Below are positions 1-26,145 of a stretch of 62,491 bases of DNA, piece by piece (position 1 is the first letter of the stretch; each line of letters begins with the position of its first letter). The notes beneath the pieces were generated by a model. That model made no database searches and was not told the DNA's origin. It worked only from the letters and a program-made list of their open reading frames with translations. The translations under genes were made by a program, and so were the position numbers. Origin of the DNA: Candidatus Omnitrophota bacterium. GTDB lineage: Bacteria > Omnitrophota > Gorgyraeia > Zapsychrales > Fredricksoniimonadaceae. The DNA lies in NCBI GenBank assembly GCA_030650275.1, contig JAUSEK010000026.1:1-62491 (forward strand). The letters are read 5' to 3'.

Positions 1-1
1 T

Positions 2-220
2 CCGCCGCGCGTCATTGCGTATACTGTTGGTGATCAAACCACCTATGTCATGCCTGACGATGATATCCGCACGCATCTTTCCCGCCGCGGCGACACTTCC
101 GATGAAATTGAAGGATTTATAGAACGCGTGAAACAGCATGAACGCCTGCACCGTGAGCGCAACGGCAGAGGTGATGCTCTTTCCGATCCCGCCCAGGAAG
201 AACGCGCGATTTTTGCCCTG
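2..220 (+). other. Repeated about 73 aa HExxH module, copy 1 (in giant ORF)
   Basis: PRVIAYTVGD..PDDDIR..IEGFI..QHERLHRERN.RGDALSDPAQEERAI; HERLH at 137-151; aligns with 3089-3304. Confidence 0.7.
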
Positions 221-3200
221 CAAGACACAGACGCATCGTGGTGGAAGGACCCTAAGCGGACCAACGTGGTCATGAGCGTACCGATCTTCTCTTTGCGGCG
301 TGAGGTCAATGATCCGGGCATCGGGAAGTTCACGGACATAGGGCCCTATTACAGGGACCATTTGGCGCCGCTGGGCATCGATGCCGTGTTGCTTCTACCG
401 CATTACGCAACGATCGATGGAAGCCCTTACGCGGTCGCAAGTCCGTATTCTTTGAATGAGGATTTCATTGACTGGATGGAGGTTGACGAGGTTAGGGAAG
501 AAGCGGCAATGTATCCGGATGTATTGCAGGAGTTGACTGCGCCGTCCTCAGAACAGCAGGCGGTCCATCACGGTTCACTCCACCACCGGGAACGAGCCAT
601 GGCCTTGAGGGCTGCCGAGCGGTTCTGGACGCGGGAGGTCCCTGCTGATTCAACGAGGGGCAAGATGTTTGACGACTTTGTGCAACGCAACAGGCCGTGG
701 CTGGATGATTACGCGGAGTTCATGGCGGTCCATGAGATCCTGGGTGGTGAATGTTTGACATGGTCTTCCCAGGCCTTGGAACAGGCGAAGCGGGAACAAA
801 CCTATTCGGCACTTGTGCGTTTGCACATGTATGCCCAATGGGTGGCTGACGAGCAGTTGCGCGCGGCCATTGCAATGGTGCATGAGCATGGCGGGAAGGT
901 CCTGTTCGATGTCCCGATGTTCCGCGGGAAAAACAGCGTCGATGTATGGAAGCATCGTGATCACTTTAAGAAAGCGGAAAATCCTGACCGGTATCCCGGC
1001 ATTGTCCGTGGAGAACTCAATGAACGCTGGGGTGATCTCGCGTTATGGAACTGGACTAGGGCCGGGCAGGAAGGGTACCGCTTTATGCTGGACCCCGTCG
1101 CCCATTGGCTTGATATGGGATTTGATGGGGCAAGGATAGACGCCCTTCATATGGCCTATAACAATGGATACGGACAGCTTGTCAGCGGCGATGAGCCGGG
1201 TAATGCCTATGTCAGCGCGCTGGCACGCGTTTTTCAGGAACGGGAGAAATTATCTGTTGCCGAGGCCTACGAAGGAAGGTCTGGGGACATAGCTCGGCGT
1301 GGATTTATCACGGTGCTTGGCGACTGGAAGCGGTTGAGTGATCATGATGGAACCGATGTGAATCCCCGTGACCCAAGGTATGACGATACCCGGGAGACCT
1401 TTATTCAAAATTTCAACGCGTATATGAATTCAGGCAATTTTTCCGGCAAGAATGCGCGGTTCATCGCTTTAGTCCTTGGGCATCAATGGGGCGATCCGAT
1501 GCCGATCAAGCGCATCACCGGTGATAATGGCACGCGCAGGAGCATATGGCATTACCGGATCCCCTTGCAGAGCGACGCCGACTATAAAAATCGGGCCCGT
1601 TTCGACGCGGGTGATTATCTTGCCGCGATCAAAGCGATCCGTCAGGGCAATATCTGGCAGGCAGGCGATGCCATCTCACGTACCTTGTCAGCCGCCGCTG
1701 ATACCTTTGTGAAACACGTCAACGGCACCGTTGAGATCTGGGCCTCCAGCCGCGACTGGTTCCAACAGCAATGGGGCAGGGATACCTTGATCGCCTTGCC
1801 GGGGCTATTGCTGGCCATGGGACGTTTTGATGAAGCCAGAGAAAATATCCGGAGTTTTGCCCGCCTGCAGCGCAATGGGTTGGTCCCCAACAGGATCCAG
1901 GACACACAGCATCCGGAGCGCACGGAATATAACACCGTGGACGGTTCAATGTGGTTTATTCAAGCCATTCAAAGTTATGTGGAGGCAACGGGTGACTGGA
2001 ATTTTGTCAATGAAATGCTTCCCACCATGCGCGCGATCGTTGAATCCTACCAGCACGGCACGGAGTATGAACGGTTCGAGTGGCCCCACCGTATTTACCG
2101 TATTTACATGGATCCTCAGGATGGCCTGATCGTCAGCCCTGCCCAAGCCACGTGGATGGACGCTGATCCGCATCATCGGGGGCCTGTGACCCCGCGCGAC
2201 GGCAAAGCCGTTGAGATCAACGCGTTGTGGTATGCCGATCTTAAATTTTTGGCCGAGGTCGAAGAGCAGGCCGGGGAACGTTCGAGGGCTGAGGCCCATC
2301 GGGATCTCGCGGGACGCGTCAAGATTTCCTTTAACGCAAAATTTTGGAACGCGCCGGAAGGCGCGCTGTTGGATGTTATTGAAGGAACGGACCCGTACCA
2401 GGGCGCGATACGGCCCAATATGCTGATAGCGGTTAGTCGGGGAGGGGACTTAATTTCGCCCGAGCGTCAAGCCGATGTCTTTGCGTCAGCCACCAAAGAT
2501 CTTTTGACCCCGTATGGATTGCGCACGCTTTCACCCAGGGATTCCCATTACCGTGGACGCTATGAAACCTGGAGACAGCCGTATCCGCATGAAGCAGATT
2601 TCCCTAATCATAAAGATTTTGCGTATCATCAGGGTACGGTGTGGCCGTGGTTGATCGGCCCGTATGTGGACACCTTGGCGCGCGTGCGGCAGCAGCAGGG
2701 TGTCGGCGAAGATGAGATCCAGGATGAGATCCGCCGGCTGTTGAGTCCGCTGATTGAATTCTTGATGACAAGCCCAGTCGGGAACATCCCCGAGGTGTTT
2801 GACGGAGATGCTCCGCATCGGGCAGGCGGCACCAGGGCACAAGCGTGGAGCGTCTCCGAGGTCCTTCGCGTACTTACAGAATATGGTGTGCTTGGTCCCC
2901 CGCGGGATGCGGGGCTTGCCGTGCCGGGGTTAATCGCGCTCATCTCCGCCGCCGCGGTCGGTTCTTTTGCGCAGGAGATCAGGGAAACGCATCCGGCCGA
3001 ACATCGGCAATTGGTGGAATACGGAAATTTGCTGGCCCGTTTTGAGGTCCAGCTGACAGACCAAGAGTCCACGGGCCCGCCCTGGCATCCCCGATATGTG
3101 AAATATACGCTGGGGAATGAAATTTATGGTATTCCCGATGATGAAATCCGCAGACAGATGAACGTTTGGCAGATTCCCACTGAAACCATTGAATCATTTA

Positions 3201-6200
3201 TCAAATTCATCAACGAACATGAAGAATGGCACCGTCTGCGCAATATCGGAGGTATTGCCCTGTCCGATCCCGATGCGGAAGAGCATGCGATCCTCACCAT
3301 TCAGGTTAACAGTATCGTACAGAAAAGCATTTCCTCATCCGCCGTATCACCGGTGAAGGATGCGACAGCGCTAATCACGCACGCCGCGGCTCTGATGGGG
3401 AAGGTCAGGGCATTACTGGATGAGATAGAAACTTTGAGGCAATTAAACCTTACCCTTAAAGAGTGGGCTTTGATAAGAAAGACGACGATCAATGCAGACG
3501 CGCGGATATTGCCGGAAGGTCATTTGCCTGATGATGGATTATTGATGGAGCATCGATGGATACAAGCGGCGAAGGCCAGAGAACTGCCGGAGCATATCCT
3601 TAATTTTGCGGACAATCATGAAGCAGAGTTGAATTTTACCGAAACGATGTTAGGGAATCCCATCGAGTTCTTAAAACGCGCCCAAATATTGATTGCCGAA
3701 AGCCCCGTTCTCTCTGAACAGACGGTCCTCAATATCACCGCCCTTGTTGAATCCGCGAATATACGGGTGGATGGCGTTAACCAAAGAGTGGGGCCTGTCA
3801 GAAGCCGTCTTAATACTTTCCAATCTAAAATGGCGAAAGAACTGCGCAAAGCCACCATGGCGTGGGGAAGGAACGACGGGCCGGGCCTGCAAGACCCGCA
3901 CGAGATCTTCAGCTATCTTTTGATTACATTAGTGACAGCCGCGGCTGTGGGGCTTTGGCTGGCCGCGAAGTGGTTCATCCGCAACCGCGGGACGGTGTTC
4001 AGGCAGCGATCGGCCGATTTTCTTGAACTTCTCGCGGCGCGTGTTGATCCAAAACGTATTTCCCGCAGCCGTCTGCAAGAGCAGGCATGGATCGACTCGC
4101 TGACCGGCCTGCACAACCAACGTTTTTTTGAAGCGATCATGGAAAAATACGTGGCCATCGCCAAGCGGTCTAAAACTAAATTATCCATGATCATCTTTGA
4201 TGTCGATGGCCTCAAGCAAGTCAATGACAGGTACGGTCATATCGCTGGCAATCGTGTTTTACGACACATTGCCGACAAGCTCCGCGATGTGGTGCGCGAT
4301 TCAGATGAAACCGCACGATGGGGCGGGGATGAGTTCACCGTGCTTTTGCTGAACGCGGATCTGAATGGCGCGGCCATTGTGGCGGAAAAGATCCGCGCGG
4401 CCGTAGAGACGCCTATAAGCGCCATTATCGGTGCCGAGATGTTGCCTGGCCAGGAGGATAGAAAAATTGCTGTGAGCCTGGGCGTTGCCGAATATGTTCA
4501 GGGGGATACGGGCCAGTCGTTTTTAAGAAAAGCCGACAGCGCGCTCTACCAGGCAAAGAGAGCGGGCCGCAACGGCGTGGTGGTTGCCGCGACGGAAATG
4601 GATCAGCCGCCCGTGCCATTTGTGCGCCACATCGTGCTGCAGGGAAGGGACTATACGATGATGTACGCGGTCGCCAACCCCCAGACGGCGGCAGCAGTGG
4701 CCAATCTTGTGCTGACCAGCGAAGCACGCATTGCCAAGGCGGGCGGGTTGAACGAATGGGAAGGGCATCTCATCGCCAGGGGTCGGCGCAACCCCGCGTG
4801 GTTCATCCGCTATGTCCAGCAGGTGTTGAAGGAAAACCCCTACTCCTTGGTGGCGAGAGATGCGCAGGAAAAAATTCAGGGCGTCGTCTTCGTTTCCCTG
4901 GTTGACGCAAAGAGCGCGGAGGAACTGCCGGCCCGGCACACCCTCATGCGTTATGCGCATCAGCGGCAGGGCGTGCGGTCTGCCATGGTGGACTTCTGGG
5001 TCACCGGCGCCGTCTCCGGGATGGCCGATGAGTTACTGCTTTCAACCAAGCACTTGGCACAGCATCTCAACCGGATGCAGCCGGAGACCTGCCGCATCGA
5101 ACGGCTCTTCGCGTACAGCACACCGCGTAGCTACAAGGAAGCGGATGATGTGTCGCGCGCGGTGATCGGCCCGCTGTCCATTGAGTTCTACCTTGCGTCT
5201 GGCAATGACCCGGTGTTGCATGGATACCACGTTCGCCTTGGCGGTACGATCGTTCGCATCATCTCCAAGGCATGGTCCTCCCGGCATAGCAATCTGGGCT
5301 ATGCCGTCGTTGTGCAGCACCCACTGATCGAGCCGTCCAAGCCGTTTGATCCAACCACCCTTAGCAGCTGGATATTTCCGACATTACTCGCGGCCGGCCT
5401 TTTGGCCAGAGTTCTGGGTTTGGACATGGACCATGCCGGGCAGCAGGCGGGATTGTTCTACGGGTGGCTGGTCAATTCTCTGGCGGGGGCAGTGATAGTT
5501 GTCTGGCAATGGCTGCGCACTCACGGTATCAGGCTTTTGCCGGATGGCCGTTATGTGTACATCGCCCGGCTTGTCCGCCGCCTAGCCAGGGAGGACAGCC
5601 CGTCGCTCGTCAGCATGGACCGCGTCATGGATGTTTTGGTCCAGGACCATGAACTGATGGCGCTCATCAGTGAAAACCGCCTGCTGGACCCGATGGCGCG
5701 ACTCATTGAAAGGTTCACCGAAGGCGCCCATATTTTCCGGTTCAATAAAAGCCAGCAGGAAGCGTTCGTCAAAATGTTTGAAGACAAGTATACACGCACA
5801 GTCAGCTTTGACCGCGACGGGTTATGGGTGGTGGAATTGTACACGCGTCCCGTTACGTGGAAGCAGAAATGGCAGGCATTTGATGAATCACCAGAGCCGA
5901 TAGGCACGTTCCGTTTTTATTATCACCAAAACGGAAAAGGGCCATCATTGCAGATCGGGTATCCTGAAATACACTCTGACTATCGCGGCCGGCATTTGTA
6001 CTCGGAAACCGTACGCGCCATCGTGGATGTGAACAATATTTCTTACGGTACGCGCGTCTGGCACGTGGTGGATGAGATACGCACGCTAGAAGCGCTTTAC
6101 GGGAAGATCGTTGGCGGGCAGGACGAGGAGGCGTATCCGGACAGACCGGAAGCGGACCGCAAGATCCTGTTGCGCGCAGACATCGTTCACGAATTAAACA

Positions 6201-21200: not shown

Positions 21201-24200
21201 GGAAACTTATTGAAAGCCTGACCGGTCAGGGGAATACGCTTAGGCGCAGCGCCCTCAAGTTCAAGGCAGACCGTCGATTTAAGGATGTCAGGACGGCGTC
21301 GCAACAGGCCGAGGGGATGTTCCTGGAAGCTGTGCGTCTTGGCCAGGATGACCCCAGCACCCTTATGGCCCGTCATGCCCTCGGTCAGCTTTATTATGAC
21401 CGAGGGGCTTATTATCGGGGCATTGAAGTTTTGGAAGAAGCCCTGGACCTGATCGGCCGGTTTCGAGACGCGAATCCACAGGCAAGGCGATTGATGAAAT
21501 TTTTAGCCGGCCAGGAATCTCTTATGCTGGTGACTCTCGCCGGCATGTTGCTGAAAAACTGGCGCCTCCAGGAGGCTTTTAAGATCCTTACTGCCGGTGA
21601 TCCGGCCGTTCTCAAACCGCAGTTCATGGAAAGTCCGGGCGCCCATCGCATCCTTGCGGATGCCTTGATCCAGGCCATGCGTCCTGCCGAGGCCATCAAC
21701 GTCCTGACCACCAACGGCATTCACCTGAAACCTCTGCTGGCGCGGTACCCCGGATTCTCCCAGCGGCTTCTTGATACTGCCCTGTCCCGGATCAGAGACC
21801 AAGGGACGGTCAAGCCCGTTGACGGGGACATTCAATTCTGTCCTCTTGAGATCATAGACATGGCCAGAGCGCTTGCTCAAAAGAATAACCTTAACGTGGG
21901 CGATCTCATCCGGGAAGGGATCAAGGGTCTTCGTGAGGCGGACCGCACATACGATCCTAAAAAAGGAGATTCCTTTAAGACGTTTGCGTTAAAAAGGGTC
22001 CGGGGTGCCATGAAGGATTTCATCCGTCGCGATCGTGCCGCGCGTCAGTATGGCGGCGGATCCGTGCCGGATCGCGCCTCCGGCGGGAAATGGCCCGGAA
22101 AATGGCAGAGGTCCTATGACCGGATCCAGGAGCAGGTGACCCGCTGGACGGGCAATAAGGCATTGGGCTGGTGGGCGGGACAGGCGTTGGCGCCCGGGTT
22201 CACGGAGTCCGTTGTTTTTGTCGGCGGCACAAGCCTGTTATTGAGTTTGGGGGCAAATGCCCTGAAAAGTTGGGCTTTTGGTCTGCCGCTGGCCATGGCC
22301 CCGCCGGTGTTGCTCACCCTTGTCTTTACTCCGTTCCTTCTTTTTGCGTGGCGCCGTTTCCACGGACGGCAGAATCTCTTCGCGGCAGACCTTGCCCTCA
22401 TCAATCATCTTTCGTTATATAGAGCCGGCTTGACCGTTTTTATTTTGGTCCTTGCACATGCGGGCAGCATGCTTGTCATCGGTTCATATCTGACGGCCCT
22501 TTGGATCTCGCATACACCGGTTAATGCCAGGCATAATCCTTTCCGCGGTGACCACGGCCATGATTTACACAATTTTCCGGTTGCACGGTGGCTGCGCGAG
22601 AGGCGGGGGCGCATGACATTGCGGGACAATGAGGGCAGGGTATTTGAGTTTCGTTATTCGGGGCCGTTCCCTGTCTTTTTTGACCACCAGCATTTGCTGA
22701 CCATCTTCCATGACGGCCGCCAGATCGGTTACGCGCATTTTATGGTCAAAGGCGGTCAGGCGCGGATGTCCACTACGTTCGGGGGACGTCCGGCCATCAT
22801 GGTGGATAAAGCCCATCGCCACCGGGGCCTCGGCAGGTCTTTGATCATGTTGTTGTCGCAGTTGGCGGGGGCGTCCGGAGCGAAACGTGTTCTGGCAAAG
22901 GATGTGCTGCCTGAAGAGACGGGTTTTTATGAAGCCCTCGGTTTTCAGAGGGTTCCCAGCGGCCATGCGTGGCGTTTATCATATGAGCTGTTGTCGTTTG
23001 AAACTTTTTCCATGAGTAAAATTTTATCGCCCGTCGCTGCACCGCTTGTGGCGGACAAGAGCGATCCACAGGGAACAACTTTTTTTGCCCCTGTATCGGT
23101 TTTGGCCCTGACTGCGCGGTCCTGGGCGCCACTTTTAGGATTGTCACCGGAGGCCGCGCTTCTTATGCAAGCGATCGGATTGGCGATAGGGCTGGTAGCG
23201 ATGGCGATATGGTTTTATGTCCGGGGAAGATCAGTGCTTGGCCTTGGAGTCATGCCTGTTGCCGTTAATGGCAATGGCACCGATGACCAGAGCAAAGCAA
23301 ATCATAAAAAGATAGGACCATTCAAGACCGATCATAAGACACCCCTTTCATTATTCAAAAGCATTATAGCAGCGGCAAATAGGATTAAAAAGCAAAACCA
23401 TCCCATTATAAATATTTCCCAAAAGATCGTGCGGGCGACCACCTGGCCGAAAACAAGCGTCACGGCCGCCAAATTGCCAAGGTTGAAGAACGCTTTGCTT
23501 AATTCTTTGCGTTGGGTGGGATTGAATCTGATGCTGAACAACATGACAGGCCTCCTGCGGATTATTTTGGGGAGATGGATTGGTACAACAAGCGTGGGGA
23601 ACGCTTGGATGAAACGATTCAATGTAACATCCGGATATGGTTTTGTCAATATTGCGGCCTCGGCCGTTGTGATCACCTTTGGCCTGTTCGCCGCTGCGTC
23701 TGCCCTGACCCCGAGTGCCAGTGTGGTTCATGACATCGGCTGGGGCGGTGTTCTGGCGGCTGGGATCGCTGCGGTGACCATCGCAGCAACGGTCAATGGT
23801 TGGCTAAGGCGGTCACCCGACAGGATGGTCAAGGTCGCGGGACCTCCACAGATCGCCTGGTCGAGACATATGGATATCGGACAGATGCAGCGGACCGTTT
23901 TCCGTGGTCCATCCGGGTCCCTTGAGCGTTTGCTTGGCGAGGTCCTGGCTGTTCACAAGCCGGTCGTTGATGCCGGATCCGGCGAGAGCGGTGCGCTGGA
24001 GGGTGTTTCTCAAGCAAGCGCCGGGGCCGTCGTGTTTCACAACCCGTCCCCTGATGAGCCGACATTGAAGGATTTCGCAAGGGCATTGTACGTGCTTGAG
24101 CCGGGCGGATGGTTCGTTGTTCACCTCAGCGGTGGTTTTTTTGACCAAGAGAAGAGATTGGTCCAGATGTTGTATCAATTCAGCCGCGCGCGGGCGGGTT

Positions 24201-26041
24201 TCAGAGAACTTGTCGTTCTTGGGTCGCCGCGTCAGGAGGACAGGGAAGTATTCTTGCTGGCGCGTTATGGCGGCGGCAATGTACGGTCATTGTCCGCCGG
24301 GAAAGGCAGATCAGTGCTTGGTCTTGGAGTTCAGCCGATTACTGTTGATGGCGAGGAACAGCATCAAGGTAGCAAAACAAGCCAAGAAGATCATGTAGGG
24401 AAGGATTGGATTCATAGTGCTCTCCTTGTTTCAGACACATTACCTAACAGCATTATAGCCGATGCAAAGAACATCGCAAGGCAAAATACTCCTAATATAA
24501 AGATCGGAGCATCGAATGTTCCCAATACAACTTGGCCTATGATCAATCCGGAAAAACACAAATTACCGGAATTGAACAGAGCTTTTCCCATTTCCTTCGA
24601 CTGGACTTCGTTGAACTTGAGGTTAATACTGAACGGCGGCATGACAGGTCTCCTGCGGTTATTTGGGGAGAGAGTAGTTGGTACAACAAGCGCGGGGAGC
24701 GCTTCGATTGAATTTAATGTAGCATCGGCCGGTGGCTTTGTCAATATTGTTCTGGTGTTGAGCCTTGGGCTTGCGGCCGCGCTGGCTCCCCACATTGCGT
24801 ATTTGCTTGGTGTTTCTACGGGGCTTGTCCCGCTTGGCGCAACTATACTGATCGTACTGGCGGGGACCATATTTAGTATATGGATCATCGCCGGCCGGAG
24901 TGCGTTATCACGATTAGTCTTGTTTGTCAGATACGGCCTAAACCTGATTGGTTTTTTCCTCTTTGTCGGTACGCAAAATTTTCTTGTTTACAGCGTTTTA
25001 CTTCTACGCGCGACAGGATGGGCATATTTGCCTGCTTCAGTTGGAGATGTGGTGAAGGCGGCGATAATTTGGGTGGCGTCAACGGTGATTCTGTTGGTAG
25101 CGGGTCAGTGGATGACCCGTTTTATTGAGGATATGGGGGATCGTGTTGGAACGTTTATGACATGGTTTCGGTCGGACGAAATCAAACAAGCGAAGGCTGA
25201 GGAGGTTTTTCAAGAGTTCAAACGCGATGGGATTGTTCGTGTCCGTTGTGATCCACGTCTGGCCGCTGGTTTGCGTCTGGTTTCTGGCGTTGAGCCGACA
25301 CAATTCTACGAGCAAGTCCAAGAGGGAGGTCGGGATTGGACGACCGGAACGATTCTCTTTACGCCGGCGTTGACGGTCTCCAAACAGGTGATACGTTATC
25401 TCATCGTGCGCCGTGCCCTTTCGGCATATTACGATGCAACACAGGGATCTTTGCATCAAAACAATCTTCTTGAGTTTCCATTCTTGGGGGGAGACCTTTT
25501 TTGGCCGTTATGGGGAGACTGGGAGTCTTTGAAGCGGGGATACCGCTATCCGGTGATGATTCCGTACATTTTACTTCATCAGGTTTTCGTAAGCTCAGTT
25601 GCTCTTGTGGGCTTTGTCTTATTGTGGATAAATCCGTCAATGGAGATACTTTTGACTGCAGGATCCGGTAGAAGTGAAGTAACGCGAAGGATTTTTTGGC
25701 ACGTTAAGCAGTTTATTTTTCGATATCCGGTGGAGGACGGTCGCATCAGGTCCTGGTTAAGGGGCAGGCATCTTTTCAGTTTTGCCTTCCCTCTGGCTCT
25801 GACATTTCCGCTGTGGGCAACACCGCAGCACCTTGCCGTGCTCACAGCCATGGGGTTGTTGATCGTGAAGGCGGTTTTGTTGACGGGTATTGTGGCAGGA
25901 GCGGTGTGGCTTTTTCACCGCGCCGGGCAAAGAAGATCAGTGCTTGGCCTTGGAGTCGCGCCTGTTGCCGTTAATGGCAATGGCACCGATGACCAGAGCA
26001 AAGCAAATCAGAAAAAGATAGAGAAAAAGGGGACACCATAA
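2..26041 (+). CDS. Giant multidomain membrane-associated protein, 5'-partial (at least 8,663 aa)
   Basis: ORF track gives 50..26041. The frame is also stop-free from base 2 (PPRVIAYTVGDQTTYV before the ATG at 50), so the true start lies upstream of the window. Many recognisable domains share the frame; stop TAA at 26039-26041. Confidence 0.92.
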   Translation, partial: PPRVIAYTVGDQTTYVMPDDDIRTHLSRRGDTSDEIEGFIERVKQHERLHRERNGRGDALSDPAQEERAIFALQDTDASWWKDPKRTNVVMSVPIFSLRREVNDPGIGKFTDIGPYYRDHLAPLGIDAVLLLPHYATIDGSPYAVASPYSLNEDFIDWMEVDEVREEAAMYPDVLQELTAPSSEQQAVHHGSLHHRERAMALRAAERFWTREVPADSTRGKMFDDFVQRNRPWLDDYAEFMAVHEILGGECLTWSSQALEQAKREQTYSALVRLHMYAQWVADEQLRAAIAMVHEHGGKVLFDVPMFRGKNSVDVWKHRDHFKKAENPDRYPGIVRGELNERWGDLALWNWTRAGQEGYRFMLDPVAHWLDMGFDGARIDALHMAYNNGYGQLVSGDEPGNAYVSALARVFQEREKLSVAEAYEGRSGDIARRGFITVLGDWKRLSDHDGTDVNPRDPRYDDTRETFIQNFNAYMNSGNFSGKNARFIALVLGHQWGDPMPIKRITGDNGTRRSIWHYRIPLQSDADYKNRARFDAGDYLAAIKAIRQGNIWQAGDAISRTLSAAADTFVKHVNGTVEIWASSRDWFQQQWGRDTLIALPGLLLAMGRFDEARENIRSFARLQRNGLVPNRIQDTQHPERTEYNTVDGSMWFIQAIQSYVEATGDWNFVNEMLPTMRAIVESYQHGTEYERFEWPHRIYRIYMDPQDGLIVSPAQATWMDADPHHRGPVTPRDGKAVEINALWYADLKFLAEVEEQAGERSRAEAHRDLAGRVKISFNAKFWNAPEGALLDVIEGTDPYQGAIRPNMLIAVSRGGDLISPERQADVFASATKDLLTPYGLRTLSPRDSHYRGRYETWRQPYPHEADFPNHKDFAYHQGTVWPWLIGPYVDTLARVRQQQGVGEDEIQDEIRRLLSPLIEFLMTSPVGNIPEVFDGDAPHRAGGTRAQAWSVSEVLRVLTEYGVLGPPRDAGLAVPGLIALISAAAVGSFAQEIRETHPAEHRQLVEYGNLLARFEVQLTDQESTGPPWHPRYVKYTLGNEIYGIPDDEIRRQMNVWQIPTETIESFIKFINEHEEWHRLRNIGGIALSDPDAEEHAILTIQVNSIVQKSISSSAVSPVKDATALITHAAALMGKVRALLDEIETLRQLNLTLKEWALIRKTTINADARILPEGHLPDDGLLMEHRWIQAAKARELPEHILNFADNHEAELNFTETMLGNPIEFLKRAQILIAESPVLSEQTVLNITALVESANIRVDGVNQRVGPVRSRLNTFQSKMAKELRKATMAWGRNDGPGLQDPHEIFSYLLITLVTAAAVGLWLAAKWFIRNRGTVFRQRSADFLELLAARVDPKRISRSRLQEQAWIDSLTGLHNQRFFEAIMEKYVAIAKRSKTKLSMIIFDVDGLKQVNDRYGHIAGNRVLRHIADKLRDVVRDSDETARWGGDEFTVLLLNADLNGAAIVAEKIRAAVETPISAIIGAEMLPGQEDRKIAVSLGVAEYVQGDTGQSFLRKADSALYQAKRAGRNGVVVAATEMDQPPVPFVRHIVLQGRDYTMMYAVANPQTAAAVANLVLTSEARIAKAGGLNEWEGHLIARGRRNPAWFIRYVQQVLKENPYSLVARDAQEKIQGVVFVSLVDAKSAEELPARHTLMRYAHQRQGVRSAMVDFWVTGAVSGMADELLLSTKHLAQHLNRMQPETCRIERLFAYSTPRSYKEADDVSRAVIGPLSIEFYLASGNDPVLHGYHVRLGGTIVRIISKAWSSRHSNLGYAVVVQHPLIEPSKPFDPTTLSSWIFPTLLAAGLLARVLGLDMDHAGQQAGLFYGWLVNSLAGAVIVVWQWLRTHGIRLLPDGRYVYIARLVRRLAREDSPSLVSMDRVMDVLVQDHELMALISENRLLDPMARLIERFTEGAHIFRFNKSQQEAFVKMFEDKYTRTVSFDRDGLWVVELYTRPVTWKQKWQAFDESPEPIGTFRFYYHQNGKGPSLQIGYPEIHSDYRGRHLYSETVRAIVDVNNISYGTRVWHVVDEIRTLEALYGKIVGGQDEEAYPDRPEADRKILLRADIVHELNRRFGGVWRDEEFLKATVLGRPLAGLDRLALKATEGGLWMTGINGERAPAWEGPQAPSWLEDFWQDHPVIANPAEQERLKQWETGFVERLHDRFLLPLEDIRTFLEDVRQAMTVGQPDTRMDTRGVDIFLAQQGPSALTRVDAAYLRKRFEEFVPLYNNMAAALNGHAPVFGRARLLEEVFFTHLFLGRRFDMSAAQAHWAVNLYRQNNIPQGIILGWLARHSLKTAMNEEQAWLAFERDPNLMLRLAGLLTEDAHSGLHLVFYRLIKAKALSNVQHLAVLSADDEDGRREAFSRGLYKVIRAAIGYSYLAGHRIQKRMLSPKERESLRQIYAALLNFIPLAVKVVPLRVSRPSKHRRSFPITPGSKANDEKKKARRVDERLRQTRGLNFNDLRNFTPQDVDKHIDGGRNGPRLGDPHEAFSFILYILVTAAAAAVMWFVRSVRAELAGDLKQLERSKRDSGKIRMTFWVSTLAVGGAEKVVLDLMNNIDTRRFDIITETRDSKERYDVEITGAQRRGMYFIIKPLLYSKFRQYLSNRSGILRLLRLMLLLARSLRQAPIEYFIHKNTRPRIYHIHEYGIRQSGKKAIAKLAGVPVVMTTYHTFPKSNGPIRSLDDMITWANHFITRISFHYIDDVIVALTEAEKQEHIRVNRVPAEKIVVIPNGIDQRLFMEQADVEKVLDVRRKLHLPEDAFVVGAVGRLSLEKGHRHLVEAARIVLEEIPQAYFLIIGEGTERGNLTRQIEAAGLRGRVVMPGVQTHDSLPLYLAAMDVFTMPSLIEGQPLAKIEAMASGKAVIASKVGGMPETLDGAGILVPPADPQTLAREIIRLAKDPELRARLGRAARERAQLFSVEKMVEDYARLYQRLAANRGISLQPASASIDSGRNGMPKHEERHIPYGIHSRGWRNNNDVGHNLSGEWYRAPHGRRGVVEISIPVMGKFWTSMWARGDWTAFGRGYFGEMLTFLENFIEDVRRQNPAARLVDFGTGNLEVPRIIRDALTDFTVYAFDVADPSWLYRPDADHFFKTDIEAVGLLDGQVHAVTAVYVLEYARRMDNVLREIHRVLKPGGLAAIIAIHPRSKLVEFAAQNVNKGETWLKEMKPGLRGPDHLEIHKAGILARLNIIKWRLERAAEIPDTEEGMNAWLRRHGFVDIKLEHLHDQDSLLAWGVRVRKPVSNQSPAAPSASANLSGLDLHSLHDITHVFWLALGFVIAIVAAAVKRIRKGRQVHYYPTVDSWQEHERAVNFHSHAAHKTTRRALRIMDSVFAAFLAIGIIDVFLGGLGIAPLLRLVFSYLFANILVAVLVWLHEFVHVLFVPKEDRTLKNFWGNMSGSNWLHLAFRRPYTVPGRLPYVQIMSDLSDARRRWVNYSALIFTFLSSSAIVFVSWILFTRGTWPMPAGLAAIVAFRSAWAGDFRNPSKHTFHWGASDPGPTGPADEDIFGDLAHTLEKYFNSMDFPDSMAEDARHEFFGRLLQNIVEDRRLKHGILMSWVLWSLRSYEHGVNPLERVFDILGTPMPPQKMIRSAIREFERVLDRATHAVSMPARDYQMVGDRSARSAGRAVVKKQTPKQAPGHRGPTEGNMSGLLPLAAGVVGVGMTVVIAGWILASIYKPQVLKFVAGRAPPGPVRRIVLSVLGRLLPEQFIPIQNHLRRLVKGDFLLLKWLRRSTPILLDLNTTPQTVGPSPDHGTTDPGITVIPTDAGNPNAMGSYEVLYGTRFLGTHEHVALPDKRIVLYQYDELPKELRNVAIGHRRQEFVRWTENKMSQAVGYAHFTTRSAGFALDSVDLAGRRVLDVGMGEGTLAILAAKKGAKSVVGVDVYPRIIDVAQKNAELNRVTSQVRFYIQDAKQSIPGEDGSFDVIIMNVPRYQFYELVGALMLRYPMVQTFILGGSAQSMDRSRVLDISDKVVRLFRRRGFVFTAKFVDTINRYYDGRMWNTYIIHSPSVEAPNALRQYMGSMKTEFTTVVIVLSMFASAPGLPAGVAAAAVLAGLGLLVLGMTVVTGRGKKGPRGLSSKKVKLKAVATKQRYYLMRFILTTVDKGALDRLITHFSAVQKRHVSDVGTAIRQIVEKTRSQWKPDVPVPPEWGDIGRKFFDWAKDQEFVTVRTQQIRERAQELLSGRMRELFEVRAGLVSWRNLGKMNYDPNFLTRALEIIRTNLPLLDDGLIPSPGMAHDDLRGTKAMIMVTGRRVSWEGSLITAGIFGLIGLAAIGGSLSMQGIGLVAISAAGVYVIQGLVIMFLPLAVSRAGSLWARTRWGVPGPPDYPLIKPLRDMRYNYYTPFLEVTDRHQIINARLQAGFLFLPPLLQWIFYLPIGLLRAVHERPAHCTPLARLHEAHNELIAYPLEILFVFTGAIGYAFAATPEALLAGILIGLSIQIILSWWGHGREQAFREAVPDIILKADRPGLISRRVVLRTLVAGIAGTAVIWKMGDLQDPLEEQTAKQRGYEDWFADRDEWLAEGDMVNAALANRRGELLRAAQMVPVMAQMSPRVFYTWIASVESLEFFRGRAEPDGKIARGELQAWIEGYRNLSRQPNTPAPDMKTVEEVQQQLRLLAAQVAINPRDRRNPIPDRRPEARSVLDRRTMFAVMLGLPKLPPAPARLILDVGAGDGRTTQALALSNPNARIIMIDPSTNSFEAAKQRLKSFPNVEFVGRHVEQWDSSGLAGSADHIYFLFPFFLYRPYKHPISADTARRIAEKIFGLLMPGSGEFVMVTEFPEIISVFIKAFRAAQLQVDSEKVPTGDLVQHVPVAIHSDIYAYISKATEARFKTVLIIHARKPVEGISSPAKRGLSKLTVFLLAAGAGLTQLFVAAPWIGRVHAVGFAMVLLGFGVAMLGGNLAKLTRVLKRWREVSRFTAQERQDFTFFTRETIDTLAAGRPQKERDRFFKRIALKPLTKIHILLRYDSHLWRDLFFVAIISVLGAFEGWILGRALLHFGNTGVAIITWLGGIVFGTFALVRSRLPARSSANIIACIIPGGTTIFVNRRLTAGRRDRFVAAVPHETAHLLHEYELAAKDTSSVIQGVVELLWGEKTGRDTVIGDPGWYDEGRRLATIQDPAQRERELLQFSRREAHADDWAQSVVSGPGHPEPESMRPYGVALASYIYETIGRLRLEGAPFPERFGDINLYLRANLNLETRDIASVEQIAEAIARTSTLSPATVDTVLDNFTLSPEIRQGVAQLALKGGIVSHLRHFEVRRSRSAPPAVVRRSPEDPGHERHRSWGRQPRPRWLGGDEDVESDPLNGDWAIPALLRHHPKKPIVPSASDASPEPSRRAAAPSVLPASDVLVGLRTAMLRPGDRVLHVGSGRSRLPFLDASLGASDVFVTDARPGSLQVVAHPGVTFISRPVDVTRLNEDLRQERFDQITMWNVLSEAYFQGDRAHALMELIRALRPHGRIWVTDDHVRLSNGEARYVHDLLPEVADAMGYRIKVLAGPKDLPGAYADVLAYELWPDHRIDKLKGLSKTSVFLLAAGAGLTQLFVAAPWIGRVHDAGLAMVLLGFGAAALGAGLAVSIKEKLAMAREHLPWTTGAVAGALVIIPFLRWNFSDPDNLLVGNLMVWAQVLLTGFLSGFGVEARGTFVNFMTMIFLPFVELTLARLWLRVAVNNVRATFFGGLFFGLSAAFFGYAIGHPLLDLARMALGSPPQDSISNIITFWIRGGQFLKVAPTVPQFLEVVAAVFGVWYLSERSARWIDGKIEPRLRRRVERRRLAVEKAVRIADQAARRAERQAERAVESIRKEKPKKKIVAPAVTKTAAPASQEIIKPAKAAAPTIATPIETAEPASVEEPFVLSALSISDLESPDTAEPFILTSLDIIEPEFDFEFNVALGSAEEPYTGQSNLDFETPMPESAPAPSAADESVAEDLDSWLGDDELGREIAARLGQMPVEEVESLLDLVWSDPSLSYAEKRQMLADLLPKENILIEQTLRFDLGRDPLGLSLIVWLETMTVPEIQQRFKDIHGRKALIKKVLQRSMNPQMAELIADAARRSGQRPLIVIERVADILGKGAAKRSVQAVVEQIRSPSSDDDLIRFASKLSALLLAAGVSLFGLGLNIPVHVQEWFHTAGLAMVLLGFGVAVLGMAVAQSPSTVMRIRGELAKRQAQHPEELINVTAIAKVLHLSRQAIYDAFERDPALEKEFRRAHHASAQAQIRRRPTRSRVGSSDARLRASNRNLLQAQRAHSRSMGARLRPAVGKIVAAYQERLLTLDCRLDATTAALEHGPPALAAIQSEVVVDWTFSRDRRRDDAVRQFLASKGVVTGGDLLAVYGKLRRYYAADRRFRLIRAALRERIGPAFLDDWTFKSNLQFDARIKKVLFTAQPPIFIMQQLLACTEADLQDLSLGPTIIRAIQAALRRHGRTLHQNAAAPSGGTALLAAADNSQRIVCRIGIIGGTGWVGSQFTRWLLRKSNRTIDVLVRPGSPRIASIPNSPAVHLRTAALLDLDEMGSWVRDNDVLFDFAAWSNLPPEPSDQEKWQLNVLAHAYRVALAGRHGTHIIFPSSSTVYRLHAGDADPPLKEDDLRPDPVVDQFIQVTVEQFSAYATGVLGGAPQRDEEFIKDFLYDHPVPANVSFYPLSKLIAERLVLGHEHALVLRFPEAYGPGETAHKAIPNMLRAIVEGAMQLGVRDDQKQFIFIEDVFRVLEVTMDARVDPARRVMNVPGPQVLDTFADVIPEIRRITGSTIQFNRVTGLQNPAMDGSRLQEQLGVVPGVLLEEGLSHTYAWWQSRSSHAAPTDAAPAVSKMGLSKLSVLLAAVGVGLFGLGLNIPVHVQAWFHTAGLVMILLGAGVAVLGMAGYKGKSFKRWKREKDLRYKHGGAAFRALVPTGMALHFTGLVSGIRHLRMSALPHMGWWPALGMTTGILLASLGWSIAASWVVEADQHRQQQKQSRLRFFGGVEHLPYMTPIAIGTLMVVVFQYMAVSILVERGVSVVLSTAEVMGSIVGLWGIYKTARTRSVLAMFILAGLYAWWFGVPFSGLLARLGWVGIVAVLAGAAVPPDRKLIESLTGQGNTLRRSALKFKADRRFKDVRTASQQAEGMFLEAVRLGQDDPSTLMARHALGQLYYDRGAYYRGIEVLEEALDLIGRFRDANPQARRLMKFLAGQESLMLVTLAGMLLKNWRLQEAFKILTAGDPAVLKPQFMESPGAHRILADALIQAMRPAEAINVLTTNGIHLKPLLARYPGFSQRLLDTALSRIRDQGTVKPVDGDIQFCPLEIIDMARALAQKNNLNVGDLIREGIKGLREADRTYDPKKGDSFKTFALKRVRGAMKDFIRRDRAARQYGGGSVPDRASGGKWPGKWQRSYDRIQEQVTRWTGNKALGWWAGQALAPGFTESVVFVGGTSLLLSLGANALKSWAFGLPLAMAPPVLLTLVFTPFLLFAWRRFHGRQNLFAADLALINHLSLYRAGLTVFILVLAHAGSMLVIGSYLTALWISHTPVNARHNPFRGDHGHDLHNFPVARWLRERRGRMTLRDNEGRVFEFRYSGPFPVFFDHQHLLTIFHDGRQIGYAHFMVKGGQARMSTTFGGRPAIMVDKAHRHRGLGRSLIMLLSQLAGASGAKRVLAKDVLPEETGFYEALGFQRVPSGHAWRLSYELLSFETFSMSKILSPVAAPLVADKSDPQGTTFFAPVSVLALTARSWAPLLGLSPEAALLMQAIGLAIGLVAMAIWFYVRGRSVLGLGVMPVAVNGNGTDDQSKANHKKIGPFKTDHKTPLSLFKSIIAAANRIKKQNHPIINISQKIVRATTWPKTSVTAAKLPRLKNALLNSLRWVGLNLMLNNMTGLLRIILGRWIGTTSVGNAWMKRFNVTSGYGFVNIAASAVVITFGLFAAASALTPSASVVHDIGWGGVLAAGIAAVTIAATVNGWLRRSPDRMVKVAGPPQIAWSRHMDIGQMQRTVFRGPSGSLERLLGEVLAVHKPVVDAGSGESGALEGVSQASAGAVVFHNPSPDEPTLKDFARALYVLEPGGWFVVHLSGGFFDQEKRLVQMLYQFSRARAGFRELVVLGSPRQEDREVFLLARYGGGNVRSLSAGKGRSVLGLGVQPITVDGEEQHQGSKTSQEDHVGKDWIHSALLVSDTLPNSIIADAKNIARQNTPNIKIGASNVPNTTWPMINPEKHKLPELNRAFPISFDWTSLNLRLILNGGMTGLLRLFGERVVGTTSAGSASIEFNVASAGGFVNIVLVLSLGLAAALAPHIAYLLGVSTGLVPLGATILIVLAGTIFSIWIIAGRSALSRLVLFVRYGLNLIGFFLFVGTQNFLVYSVLLLRATGWAYLPASVGDVVKAAIIWVASTVILLVAGQWMTRFIEDMGDRVGTFMTWFRSDEIKQAKAEEVFQEFKRDGIVRVRCDPRLAAGLRLVSGVEPTQFYEQVQEGGRDWTTGTILFTPALTVSKQVIRYLIVRRALSAYYDATQGSLHQNNLLEFPFLGGDLFWPLWGDWESLKRGYRYPVMIPYILLHQVFVSSVALVGFVLLWINPSMEILLTAGSGRSEVTRRIFWHVKQFIFRYPVEDGRIRSWLRGRHLFSFAFPLALTFPLWATPQHLAVLTAMGLLIVKAVLLTGIVAGAVWLFHRAGQRRSVLGLGVAPVAVNGNGTDDQSKANQKKIEKKGTP
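260..1570 (+). other. 4-alpha-glucanotransferase (GH77/MalQ-like) domain in giant ORF
   Basis: VPIFSLR..GIGKFTD, SPYAVASPYSLN, YAQWVADEQL, LFDVPMF, WGDLALWNW; RID, AE and HD catalytic-type motifs present. Confidence 0.8.
1736..2880 (+). other. Amylo-alpha-1,6-glucosidase (glycogen debranching enzyme C-terminal) domain in giant ORF
   Basis: WGRDTLIALPGL, YNTVDGSMWF, TWMDA, TPRDGKAVEINALWY, IRPN, LLTPYGLRTLSP, YHQGTVWPWLIG, IPEVFDGD..AQAWSV. Confidence 0.88.
3089..3304 (+). other. Repeated HExxH module, copy 2 (in giant ORF)
   Basis: PRYVKYTLGN..PDDEIR..IESFI..EHEEWHRLRN.GGIALSDPDAEEHAI; HEEWH at 3218-3232. Confidence 0.7.
3866..3960 (+). repeat. GRN(D/G)..DPHE.FS..LVTAAA transmembrane linker, copy a
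   Basis: Shares AGACCCGCACGAG and ATTAGTGACAGCCGCGGC with 7409-7512. Confidence 0.75.
4085..4585 (+). other. GGDEF diguanylate cyclase domain in giant ORF
   Basis: DSLTGLHN, FDVDGLKQVNDRYGHIAGN, RDSD-ETARW-GGDEF (4322-4336), ADSALYQAKRAGRN. Confidence 0.92.
4640..5330 (+). other. Possible GNAT-like domain in giant ORF
   Basis: Alpha/beta pattern ending DPVLHGYHVRLGGTIVRII..SNLGYAVVVQH; weak family recall. Confidence 0.35.
5880..6080 (+). other. GNAT-like acetyltransferase motif in giant ORF
   Basis: IGYPEIHSDYRGRHLYSETV resembles the acetyl-CoA-binding motif A. Confidence 0.45.
7409..7512 (+). repeat. GRNG..DPHE.FS..LVTAAA transmembrane linker, copy b
   Basis: Homologous to 3866-3960; its first 20 nt match 8840-8859 at 19/20. 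Confidence 0.75.
7586..8800 (+). other. GT-B family 4 glycosyltransferase domain in giant ORF
   Basis: GGAEKVV, VIPNGID, VGAVGRLSLEKG, DVFTMPSLIEGQPLAKIEAMASG (E-X7-E), VGGMPE. Confidence 0.92.
9137..9720 (+). other. Class I SAM methyltransferase fold #1 in giant ORF
   Basis: LVDFGTGNLE, AFDVA, YVLEY..VLREIHRVLKPGG. Confidence 0.8.
9960..10440 (+). other. Intramembrane HExxH (site-2/M50-like) segment in giant ORF
   Basis: Hydrophobic helices with LVWLHEFVHVLF (HEFVH at 10118-10132). Confidence 0.5.
11555..11990 (+). other. Class I SAM methyltransferase fold #2 (PrmA-like) in giant ORF
   Basis: GRRVLDVGMGEGTLAILAAKKGAKSVVGVDV..AQKNAELN; FDVIIMNVP. Confidence 0.85.
14012..14545 (+). other. 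Class I SAM methyltransferase fold #3 (TrmB-like) in giant ORF
   Basis: ILDVGAGDG, IIMIDP, DHIYFLFP, GEFVMVTE. Confidence 0.75.
14576..14716 (+). repeat. TM-hairpin cassette copy 1 (GLSKLTVFLLAAGAG...AMVLLGFGVAMLG)
   Basis: High nucleotide similarity to 16589-16730, 18306-18452 and 20434-20586. Confidence 0.9.
14960..15700 (+). other. TM-anchored zincin-like segment in giant ORF
   Basis: Two TM helices, then FVAAVPHETAHLLHE (HETAH at 15209-15223). Confidence 0.5.
16088..16560 (+). other. Class I SAM methyltransferase fold #4 in giant ORF
   Basis: PGDRVLHVGSG, FVTD, FDQITMWNVL, LIRALRPHGRIWVTD. Confidence 0.75.
16589..16730 (+). repeat. TM-hairpin cassette copy 2
   Basis: GLSKTSVFLLAAGAGLTQLFVAAPWIGRVHDAGLAMVLLGFG; middle nearly identical to copy 1. 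Confidence 0.9.
18306..18452 (+). repeat. TM-hairpin cassette copy 3
   Basis: SKLSALLLAAGVSLFGLGLNIPVHVQEWFHTAGLAMVLLGFGVAVLGM. Confidence 0.9.
18533..18601 (+). other. Helix-turn-helix motif in giant ORF
   Basis: INVTAIAKVLHLSRQAIYDAF. Confidence 0.65.
18911..19292 (+). other. Tandem RNA polymerase alpha-CTD-like repeats in giant ORF
   Basis: Two DWTF-starting units. The second (ARIKKVL..IFIMQQLLACTEADLQDLSLGPTIIRAIQAALRRHGRTL) follows the alpha-CTD pattern [47 protein letters not shown]. Confidence 0.6.
19363..20390 (+). other. NAD-dependent epimerase/dehydratase (extended SDR) domain in giant ORF
   Basis: IGIIGGTGWVG, FPSSSTVY, YPLSK (YxxxK), LRFPEAYGPG, FIFIEDV. Confidence 0.88.
20434..20586 (+). 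repeat. TM-hairpin cassette copy 4
   Basis: GLSKLSVLLAAVGVGLFGLGLNIPVHVQAWFHTAGLVMILLGAGVAVLGM; middle matches copy 3 at 68/71 nt. Confidence 0.9.
21300..21800 (+). other. TPR-like helical repeats in giant ORF
   Basis: AEGMFLEAVRL..ARHALGQLYYDRGAYYRGIEVLEEALDL. Confidence 0.6.
21848..22033 (+). other. Sigma-70 region 2-like domain (FliA-type pattern) in giant ORF
   Basis: DLIREGIKGLREADRTYDPKKGDSFKTFALKRVRGAMKDFIR. Confidence 0.8.
22600..22990 (+). other. GNAT acetyltransferase domain in giant ORF
   Basis: IMVDKAHRHRGLGRSL..FYEALGF. Confidence 0.8.
23231..23335 (-). CDS. Nested antisense small membrane protein B1, 34 aa (MIGLEWSYLFMICFALVIGAIAINGNRHDSKAKH)
   Basis: SD-like AAGGGGTG upstream; ATG overlaps the TGA of ORF A1 (ATGA); one TM helix plus basic tail; homologue at 24311-24415. 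Confidence 0.7.
   Translation of the reverse strand: MIGLEWSYLFMICFALVIGAIAINGNRHDSKAKH
23332..23544 (-). CDS. Nested antisense 2-TM small protein A1, 70 aa (MLFSIRFNPTQRKELSKAFFNLGNL...)
   Basis: AGGAGG 6 nt before the ATG at 23544; conservative substitutions relative to homologue 24412-24642. Confidence 0.75.
   Translation of the reverse strand: MLFSIRFNPTQRKELSKAFFNLGNLAAVTLVFGQVVARTIFWEIFIMGWFCFLILFAAAIMLLNNERGVL
23621..23649 (-). promoter_or_regulatory. Sigma-70 promoter of nested antisense unit 1
   Basis: TTGACA (23649-23644), 17 nt spacer, TGn-TACATT (23626-23621). Confidence 0.75.
23948..24290 (+). other. Degenerate SAM methyltransferase fold #5 in giant ORF
   Basis: PVVDAGSGE..FARALYVLEPGGWFVV. 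Confidence 0.55.
24311..24415 (-). CDS. Nested antisense small membrane protein B2, 34 aa (MNPILPYMIFLACFATLMLFLAINSNRLNSKTKH)
   Basis: AAGGAG 6 nt before ATG; ATGA overlap with the A2 stop; same length as B1. Confidence 0.7.
   Translation of the reverse strand: MNPILPYMIFLACFATLMLFLAINSNRLNSKTKH
24412..24642 (-). CDS. Nested antisense 2-TM small protein A2, 76 aa (MPPFSINLKFNEVQSKEMGKALFNSGNL...)
   Basis: AGGAG SD before the ATG at 24642; homologous to A1. Confidence 0.75.
   Translation of the reverse strand: MPPFSINLKFNEVQSKEMGKALFNSGNLCFSGLIIGQVVLGTFDAPIFILGVFCLAMFFASAIMLLGNVSETRRAL
24716..24744 (-). promoter_or_regulatory. Sigma-70 promoter of nested antisense unit 2
   Basis: TTGACA (24744-24739), 17 nt spacer, TGn-TACATT (24721-24716). 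Confidence 0.75.
25937..26024 (-). pseudogene. Truncated third copy of small ORF B (LYLFLICFALVIGAIAINGNRRDSKAKH), no in-frame start
   Basis: 25932-26021 matches 23226-23315 at 87/90 nt; upstream part replaced by a palindrome. Confidence 0.7.
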
Positions 26042-26054
26042 AGTGTCCCCTTTT
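26025..26054. terminator. 12-bp perfect hairpin AAAAGGGGACAC-cataaa-GTGTCCCCTTTT; likely bidirectional terminator or REP-like element
   Basis: Perfect inverted repeat with A/T tails; the giant ORF stop codon lies in its loop. Confidence 0.7.
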
Positions 26055-26104
26055 GCCCGGAATAGGACATTTCTACTTTGCCTTTACAGTGAAGCCTCTG
26101 TACC

Positions 26105-26133
26105 TTGACACTCGCCCGTCGGGGTGTTATACT
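26105..26133 (+). promoter_or_regulatory. Sigma-70 promoter
   Basis: TTGACA-17-TGn-TATACT, 12 nt before ATG 26146. Confidence 0.8.
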
Positions 26134-26145
26134 TTGGCCACAACT

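Follow-up and report, generated by a model that had tools for sequence, protein, structure and literature searches.

We analysed the contig JAUSEK010000026.1 of the assembly GCA_030650275.1 (Candidatus Omnitrophota bacterium); the window is the entire 62,491-bp contig, which begins within a giant open reading frame (ORF). This ORF is a real single gene whose 5' part was lost at a repeat-induced break, and we consider it probable that it encodes a giant Omnitrophota protein in which many enzymes are threaded by transmembrane (TM) helices and held at the membrane's cytoplasmic side. Giant TM-threaded multi-enzyme proteins of Omnitrophota have already been published and the present gene joins this known class; its own particulars are the reused TM connectors, the unrecognised HExxH modules, the orphan sequence and an extreme exclusion of cysteine. 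Amino acid (aa) 1 corresponds to window position 2, and the coordinates of the features are collected in Table 1.

The giant frame comprises 8,679 codons and a TAA (26039–26041), 26,040 nt in all on the plus strand, and the terminal TAA is the only stop in its translation. It is open on the 5' side and no stop was found upstream, in agreement with an earlier note on this DNA that had described a 5'-open gene of more than 8,660 aa. A codon-usage model was trained on 13 housekeeping genes from the same contig, and with this model the giant's frame scored better than the five other frames in all of the 1.5-kb windows examined (17/17). At a resolution of 450 nt, the margin fell to about zero only at two repeat cassettes near the C-terminus. 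Cysteine codons (TGY) were counted as well; there are 9 among the 8,679 codons of the giant's frame and 214–392 in each of the other five frames. Within the last 1,000 codons, one TGY is found in the giant's frame against 24–57 in the others, and the two ambiguous cassettes contain none in 293 codons, where 12.7 would be expected at the off-frame rate (P ~3e-6). This scarcity of TGY, which extends into the ambiguous cassettes, therefore shows selection on the giant's frame as far as the stop codon. It is clear from three independent signals, codon usage, intact motifs and the depletion of cysteine codons, that the frame is translated from end to end. No RNA run holding the giant sequence was found among the public runs. 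Fourteen in-frame sites with a Shine-Dalgarno sequence and a start codon lie inside the giant; they do not follow the module boundaries, and the real genes here mostly lack a Shine-Dalgarno sequence.

On the minus strand of the same two cassettes (23222–23653 and 24302–24748) we noticed small hydrophobic antisense ORFs of 70/59 aa and 34/34 aa, as well as a promoter-like site, TTGACA-17-TACATT, which is kept in both copies. The antisense frame equals the giant's frame on the codon-usage score, and the TGY counts favour the giant's frame as the selected one. Substitution counts by codon position between the two cassettes did not separate the strands, because antisense ORF A and the giant's frame share the wobble position.

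Among public sequencing runs, the giant sequence was found in one (X1), a groundwater metagenome that is probably the source sample of the contig. Logan contigs tile the ORF at a depth of 15–16.6x, with 12.4x for 23.3–26.0 kb. The unitig breaks are confined to internal repeats, near 7.2, 14.7, 18.4, 23.3 and 26.0 kb, and around each internal repeat pair the unitigs make a simple loop that can be followed in one consistent way. The unitig on which the contig starts has twice the usual depth and extends beyond the contig end; therefore the break was induced by a repeat and the gene continues. The upstream part of this unitig resembles window positions 2941–2998, so that, judged by this resemblance, the gene continues with what looks like another TM + HExxH unit. 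The upstream extension that the earlier note had envisaged amounted to 142 nt gained through the unitig, the window being the whole contig already. The doubled depth implies that a near-identical copy of the TM + HExxH boundary unit is present at a second place, be it farther upstream in this gene or in a different giant gene.

It seems highly improbable that the gene is an artefact, whether through chimeric joining at the internal repeats or through sequencing errors that merged several genes. It is true that the assembly is based on short reads, that the unitigs break at the internal repeats and that the sequence is present in one run alone. However, the depth is even, the repeat pairs resolve along one path, and each segment of the 8,679 open codons has the same codon usage and the same exclusion of cysteine, which is not expected from unrelated genes that have been joined.

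To identify the host, we relied on the serine hydroxymethyltransferase encoded downstream. All named matches among its best 120 (80–95% identity) come from Candidatus Omnitrophica or Omnitrophota, and the enzyme is up to 95% identical to proteins of Omnitrophota metagenome-assembled genomes, which bears out the link to this phylum drawn earlier. By this marker, the host belongs to the Omnitrophota; it is an uncultivated bacterium from groundwater.

Scans of the giant chain against Pfam and NCBIfam assigned 28% of it to recognised domains; hydrophobic helices make up 13%, and the remaining 59% is dark. The domains belong to 10 or more distinct families, none of which dominates, the commonest being the class I methyltransferase with four copies. 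The scans contained the kinds of domain named by the earlier note: GGDEF, domains for S-adenosylmethionine (SAM), acetyl coenzyme A (acetyl-CoA), nicotinamide adenine dinucleotide (NAD) and nucleoside diphosphate (NDP) sugars, and one directed at RNA polymerase. The note had also claimed that they depend on cytoplasmic cofactors, and the catalytic and cofactor motifs of the recognised enzymes are indeed intact (Table 1); the enzymes look active and appear to need cytoplasmic cofactors. No region 4 accompanying the sigma-70 region 2 fragment was found in the giant, and the lone region 2 might bind core RNA polymerase. Neither adhesin or dockerin domains nor lytic transglycosylase or other wall-degrading domains were detected in the visible chain by these scans; a difference from adhesin giants had been pointed out in the earlier note.

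The GH77 and GDE_C domains represent the two activities of indirect glycogen debranching. As in the eukaryote-type glycogen debranching enzyme, one chain carries a 4-alpha-glucanotransferase with a GDE_C glucosidase fused downstream of it, and the fusion recurs in P0001, an otherwise unrelated protein without TM helices. The pair differs from the eukaryote-type enzyme in that it lies inside a giant membrane protein and in that its transferase is GH77 (MalQ-type); the transferase of the eukaryotic enzyme belongs to a different family.

Between the domains run about 48 hydrophobic helices. They form at least 8 tight hairpins with loops of 1–4 aa, 5–6 single anchors and 3 polytopic blocks, and the uncharged hairpins extend over 42–52 aa. 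The earlier description of the helices as mostly paired is correct for aa 4000–7500 and less so for the N-terminal third. Several of the connectors are repeats. Three copies of the peptide GLSK (0.16 expected) mark three of the four hairpin cassettes; the two copies of DPHE each stand directly before a single TM anchor; and RSVLGLGV is found three times in the C-terminal tail. The connectors are 79–97% identical in DNA and the intervening cargo is unrelated, which suggests that connectors were duplicated or converted and that cargo was exchanged between them.

Membrane topology was modelled by enumerating the 16 weaker helices in TopPred style, with the positive-inside rule as the score. The tight hairpins carry 3–8 lysine or arginine residues (K/R) in their 15-residue C-terminal flanks and 0–4 in their N-terminal flanks. 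Such K/R-rich flanks are expected if both flanks are cytoplasmic, and they fit the earlier idea that the hairpins keep their flanks on one side. In the single anchors the N-flank is acidic and the C-flank rich in K/R, which indicates an N-out, C-in orientation. In the best-scoring models, 9–10 of the 12 cofactor-dependent domains are inside, and GT4 and methyltransferase a, sometimes also GNAT, are outside. A model with all of them inside scores 84 against an optimum of 91 and needs the helices 3265–3284 and 7718–7740 not to span the membrane. The predicted outside loops (aa 992–1301, about 1839–2484 and 3457–3645) have no recognised domain. The one-sided topology proposed in the earlier note is therefore well supported for aa 3700–7400 and merely compatible with the data elsewhere; under strict alternation, 9–10 of the 12 domains would lie inside.

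It seems likely to us that the chain is inserted co-translationally, most likely into the cell's own inner membrane, and that it would stay in one piece. Through the reused connectors, which comprise the tight hairpins flanked by K/R, the single 'DPHE-TM-K/R' anchors and a small number of polytopic blocks, at least 12 domains with intact catalytic or regulatory functions would be stapled to the cytoplasmic face, and the few Pfam-dark loops listed above would face outward. Judged by its domains, the chain could serve as a hub at the membrane in which the metabolism of glucan and surface sugars is carried out and regulated. Such a hub would combine alpha-glucan debranching (GH77 + GDE_C), an NDP-sugar SDR, a GT4, a cyclic di-GMP (c-di-GMP) synthase with its I-site, four methyltransferases, a GNAT and the sigma region 2 fragment.

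Several points weigh against this explanation. The topology was obtained with a home-made hydropathy and charge model and not with a trained predictor, and no model in which every strong helix spans the membrane places all the cofactor-dependent domains inside. The two homologous HExxH mini-modules are predicted on opposite sides of the membrane. The read support comes solely from the sample from which the contig was probably assembled and is not an independent confirmation. In addition, the exclusion of cysteine, even within the enzyme domains, is unexplained by a cytoplasmic scaffold.

The architecture as such is not new, as a comparison with published giants shows. Seymour et al. 2023 (PMC10066038) described ORFs of over 20 kb from most classes of Omnitrophota, rich in TM helices and with few domains that are poorly conserved; their type example is a Velamenicoccus archaeovorus protein of 39,678 aa with 42 TM helices. 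The present gene resembles them in its length above 20 kb, its Omnitrophota host, its many TM helices, and in being largely dark and poorly conserved; unlike them, it is truncated, has no adhesin-type domains, and its recognisable content consists of cofactor-dependent enzymes. The 'Archaeovorins' of West-Roberts 2023 (bioRxiv 10.1101/2023.11.21.568195), defined by a cut-off of more than 30,000 aa, contain glycosyltransferases, methyltransferases, glycoside hydrolases, peptidases, NUDIX domains and many TM helices; their 20 commonest domains include GGDEF, and a divergent SecA DEAD domain is present in 'most'. Our gene shares with them GT4, GH77, GDE_C, four methyltransferases, TPR, GGDEF and numerous TM helices in one chain. 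Unlike them, its visible part (8,679 aa) lacks SecA_DEAD, NUDIX, HEAT, C39/S8 peptidase and GT5, although the missing N-terminal part could hold NUDIX or SecA, and there are no type II secretion or type IV pilus genes in the 36 kb downstream. The Archaeovorin domains were inferred to be mostly extracellular, whereas those of the giant are mostly cytoplasmic by charge bias. Nielsen and Lui 2026 (bioRxiv 10.64898/2026.06.07.730766) defined a 'multi-enzyme metabolic cluster' class and read a TM-only topology, with TM helices and no signal peptide, as membrane-anchored cytoplasmic domains. The giant agrees with this class in its many distinct Pfams, none of them dominant; a membrane-anchored, mostly cytoplasmic architecture may apply to it as well, to judge by the charge-bias model with its 9–10 of 12 domains inside. 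It mixes their 'regulatory' (methyltransferase, GNAT) and 'sugar' (GT group 1) modules, and as visible it is below their cut-off of 10,000 aa but continues upstream. GH77/GDE_C, GGDEF, sigma domains, hairpin connectors and cleavage are not mentioned in their text. The earlier link to published Omnitrophota giant genes is thus borne out by Seymour 2023 and West-Roberts 2023, and any novelty of a TM-threaded multi-enzyme architecture had to be given up, as membrane-anchored cytoplasmic multi-enzyme giants are already in Nielsen and Lui 2026.

At the level of sequence the giant has few relatives. A word-index search with aa 1–5000 found, among giant-length proteins, only P0001 (5,136 aa, partial, Omnitrophota). 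This match is restricted to the fused GH77+GDE_C pair (P0001 aa 767–1785, 24–33% identity); P0001 has no TM helices and no HExxH and carries an SNF2-type helicase. Scans of GTDB genomes and JGI metagenomes with aa 1–1100 gave only ordinary GDE enzymes at 33–49% identity, and aa 992–1301 had no match in the sequence search. An exhaustive HMMER search with aa 4840–6039 against 1.84 billion representatives returned 7 weak or short matches, none longer than 1,207 aa, and the best of them, P0122, keeps HE(T/I)AH(L/I)LH. No orthologue of the giant was detected in the protein, genome and metagenome searches, and the window's own giant was also absent from both protein libraries. The giant appears to be a sequence orphan, in a soft sense only, because very long proteins may be under-represented in the libraries.

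The depletion of cysteine is 16-fold. The giant has 9 Cys in 8,679 residues (0.10%), while the 13 housekeeping proteins of the contig have 93 in 5,750 (1.62%; p = 5e-48). About 2,400 aa of recognised domains contain a single Cys, and in the GDE region the giant has 0/417 against 7/405 in L001, a stand-alone GDE homologue. The counts in relatives are 16/5,136 (0.31%) for P0001, 0/493 for P0122 and 0/537 for P0123. No mention of cysteine exclusion was found in the Omnitrophota giant-gene papers reachable by full-text search. Bacteria that lack disulfide machinery typically keep cysteine out of the proteins they export, and substrates secreted in an unfolded state are typically poor in it too; of all the observations on the giant, this is the one that tilts towards export or delivery. 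The earlier note had suggested that the protein may be processed or delivered into a host cell; this was not borne out, as no protease, cleavage motif or host-targeting feature and no secretion system could be recognised in the visible chain or the 36-kb flank.

If the protein or pieces of it did leave the cell, the hairpins would enter the membrane of a prey or host, much as chlamydial Inc proteins use their bilobed hydrophobic domain, and the enzymes would act in the prey cytoplasm, which offers guanosine triphosphate (GTP), SAM, acetyl-CoA, NAD, NDP-sugars, glycogen and RNA polymerase. We regard such an exported or delivered effector chain as unlikely. The near-absence of cysteine, the uncharged hairpins and the predation link of Omnitrophota giants in the literature are consistent with it, as is an effector-like set made up of the sigma region 2 fragment, GGDEF, a PrmA-like methyltransferase, GNAT and glycogen-mobilising enzymes. 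However, the 36 kb downstream hold housekeeping genes without any secretion-system, pilus or chaperone genes, and export of a chain with so many hydrophobic helices has no known precedent. Moreover, K/R-rich hairpin flanks are the normal sign of insertion into the cell's own inner membrane, and cysteine avoidance may have other causes. The N-terminus lies beyond the contig end, so an export signal is not assessable. The Inc proteins likewise have two helices, a very short loop and flanks on the same side; they are small type III secretion substrates, no type III system was seen in the surroundings of the giant, and no sequence similarity was tested or found. MARTX toxins similarly unite several unrelated enzyme domains in one chain, but no RTX repeats, autoprocessing cysteine protease domain or type I secretion genes were detected in the Pfam/NCBIfam scans or the flanking genes.

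A cysteine-free effector string with Inc-like hairpins in the prey membrane and enzymes active in the prey cytoplasm is, in this specific form, a distinctly unlikely version. If it were true, GH77+GDE_C would mobilise prey glycogen, c-di-GMP signalling would be disturbed, the PrmA-like methyltransferase and GNAT would modify proteins of the prey, and sigma region 2 would titrate RNA polymerase, and the embedded HExxH modules might first cut the string into pieces.

A very unlikely explanation, in our view, is an extracellular enzyme coat, with the soluble domains mostly outside, as TMHMM-based maps suggested for the Archaeovorins, and attacking prey walls. Most giant domains were predicted to be extracellular in West-Roberts 2023, a surface coat was proposed by Kizina et al., and an outside location would be consistent with the cysteine exclusion. 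Against this, the recognisable domains, with their cofactor motifs intact, need GTP, SAM, acetyl-CoA, NAD and NDP-sugars, the charge bias places most of them inside, and the scans found none of the adhesin or wall-degrading domains mentioned above. The authors of West-Roberts 2023 themselves called some of the extracellular localisations unlikely.

A separate question, compatible with the membrane-bound hub that we favour, is whether the chain's own HExxH modules cleave it in or close to the connectors, so that separate enzymes anchored in the membrane would result. The candidates would be the modules at aa 2–74 and 1030–1101, HEFVH within a helix at aa 3373 and the HETAH domain at aa 5070. 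The chain contains 5 HExxH motifs against 0.33 expected; with four taken as independent, P is ~4e-4. The glycogen block is bracketed by the two mini-modules, which share the invariant residues H46, E47, H50, E66 and E67, and HETAHLLH is kept in P0122. In addition, the single anchors resemble stop-transfer segments, which are sensible only after translocated segments or new N-termini, and cleavage of giants by embedded peptidases was raised in West-Roberts 2023. Viral polyproteins, for example those of flaviviruses, likewise have TM start- and stop-transfer segments between domains. On the other hand, no peptidase family matched anywhere in the visible chain in Pfam or NCBIfam, and the dark segments had no match among PDB sequences. 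In the predicted fold of the mini-module, a beta-hairpin and a helix precede a long HExxH helix, and an EE helix comes last; this model is weak (predicted local distance difference test, pLDDT, 59), and Foldseek gave no significant match to it, no zincin and no solved structure; the prediction for the HETAH domain was unusable (pLDDT 41). The RSELR-type, SAGLEE-type and DxAM boundary peptides known from other giant families were also absent, with 0 occurrences of each in the chain. Self-processing is thus a motif-level suggestion, and we consider it rather unlikely.

Giant genes account for a large part of the small genomes of Omnitrophota. The present gene is an unusually readable example, with a dozen enzymes of known chemistry between a small set of reused TM connectors, and it supplies concrete constructs on topology, possible self-cleavage and the way such genes are built. 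Cysteine frequency is a simple, survey-ready statistic which could help to separate cytoplasmic-scaffold from exported or delivered models across the published catalogues.

Table 1. Positions of the features of the giant ORF; residues refer to the giant chain, and helices are predicted.
Feature	Window positions	Residues (aa)	Strand	Basis or remark
Contig start on 283-nt unitig	1..141		+	2x depth (31 vs 16); unitig extends 142 nt further upstream
Giant ORF	2..26041		+	ORF listing, codon model, TGY counts; 5'-truncated at contig end
Putative HExxH mini-module, copy 1	5..223	2-74	+	HERLH, conserved EE 16-17 residues after second His
GH77 4-alpha-glucanotransferase	278..1645	93-548	+	Family match; RID / AE / HD motifs
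GDE_C amylo-alpha-1,6-glucosidase	1745..2869	582-956	+	E = 2e-107
Single TM helix after glycogen block	2909..2974	970-991	+	Hydropathy
Putative HExxH mini-module, copy 2	3089..3304	1030-1101	+	44% identical to copy 1; in predicted non-cytoplasmic segment
'DPHE-[TM]-K/R' anchor, copy 1	3866..4060	1289-1353 (TM 1302-1322)	+	Repeat + hydropathy
GGDEF diguanylate cyclase	4085..4573	1362-1524	+	GGDEF + RxxD I-site intact
'DPHE-[TM]-K/R' anchor, copy 2	7418..7588	2473-2529 (TM 2485-2505)	+	DNA 79% identical to copy 1
GT4 glycosyltransferase	7619..8737	2540-2912	+	EX7E intact
Class I SAM methyltransferase a	9119..9481	~3040-3160	+	Family match
Polytopic block, 4 helices, HEFVH inside helix	9794..10369	3265-3456	+	Hydropathy
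TM helix		3646-3676	+	Hydropathy
PrmA-like SAM methyltransferase b	11513..11797	3838-3932	+	GxGxG intact
Hairpin		4029-4070	+	Hydropathy
Hairpin		4262-4313	+	Hydropathy
SAM methyltransferase c	14009..14251	4670-4750	+	GxGxG intact
TM-hairpin cassette 1 ('GLSK'-TM-TM-K/R)	14543..14809	4848-4936	+	Repeat
Hairpin		4981-5027	+	Hydropathy
Unrecognised domain with HETAHLLH	15119..15751	5040-5250	+	Motif kept in P0122
Weak SAM methyltransferase d	16109..16411	5370-5470	+	53% identical to P0123
TM-hairpin cassette 2	16562..16750	5521-5583	+	DNA 84% identical to cassette 1
TM-hairpin cassette 3	18257..18544	6086-6181	+	Repeat
SDR NAD-dependent epimerase/dehydratase	19373..20182	6458-6727	+	GxxGxxG + YxxxK intact
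TM-hairpin cassette 4	20402..20620	6801-6873	+	DNA 88% identical to cassette 3
TPR		~7115-7150	+	Domain scan
Lone sigma-70 region 2 fragment, FliA/WhiG-like	21866..22036	7289-7345	+	~57 aa
Hairpin		7403-7450	+	Hydropathy
GNAT acetyltransferase	22685..22951	7562-7650	+	RxxGxG intact
Pfam-dark TM-rich tail, three RSVLGLGV repeat copies		7680-8679	+	Repeat + scans
C-terminal repeat copy 1, begins RSVLGLGV	23222..23653	7741-7884	+	0 TGY in giant's frame
C-terminal repeat copy 2	24302..24748	8101-8249	+	Repeat
C-terminal repeat copy 3, truncated	25760..26020	8587-8673	+	DNA 25932-26021 97% identical to 23226-23315
Bidirectional terminator-like hairpin, AAAAGGGGACAC...GTGTCCCCTTTT	26025..26054		.	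Giant's TAA in loop

The terminator-like hairpin at the end of the giant reads, with its flanks, AAAA-GGGGACAC...GTGTCCCC-TTTT. After it and ahead of the next gene, at 26105–26133, lies a sigma-70-like promoter with 11/12 matches and a TG extension. The ORF just downstream (26053–27555, plus strand) has no family match; read from an internal Met (MIKSISFIALLFFPVLGIAQE), it begins with an apparent signal peptide, continues as a coiled coil for about 440 aa, and is probably an envelope protein.

The 36 kb downstream of the giant carry ordinary chromosomal functions, among them ComM, a LysM-YkuD transpeptidase, AccA, RlmN, BirA, two tRNAs, purine synthesis, the serine hydroxymethyltransferase and the CCA-adding enzyme. 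Two gene fusions were noticed in this region: PurS is fused to PurL at 48721–51627 (968 aa), and Sua5/YrdC is fused to a low-molecular-weight phosphotyrosine phosphatase at 55509–56630.

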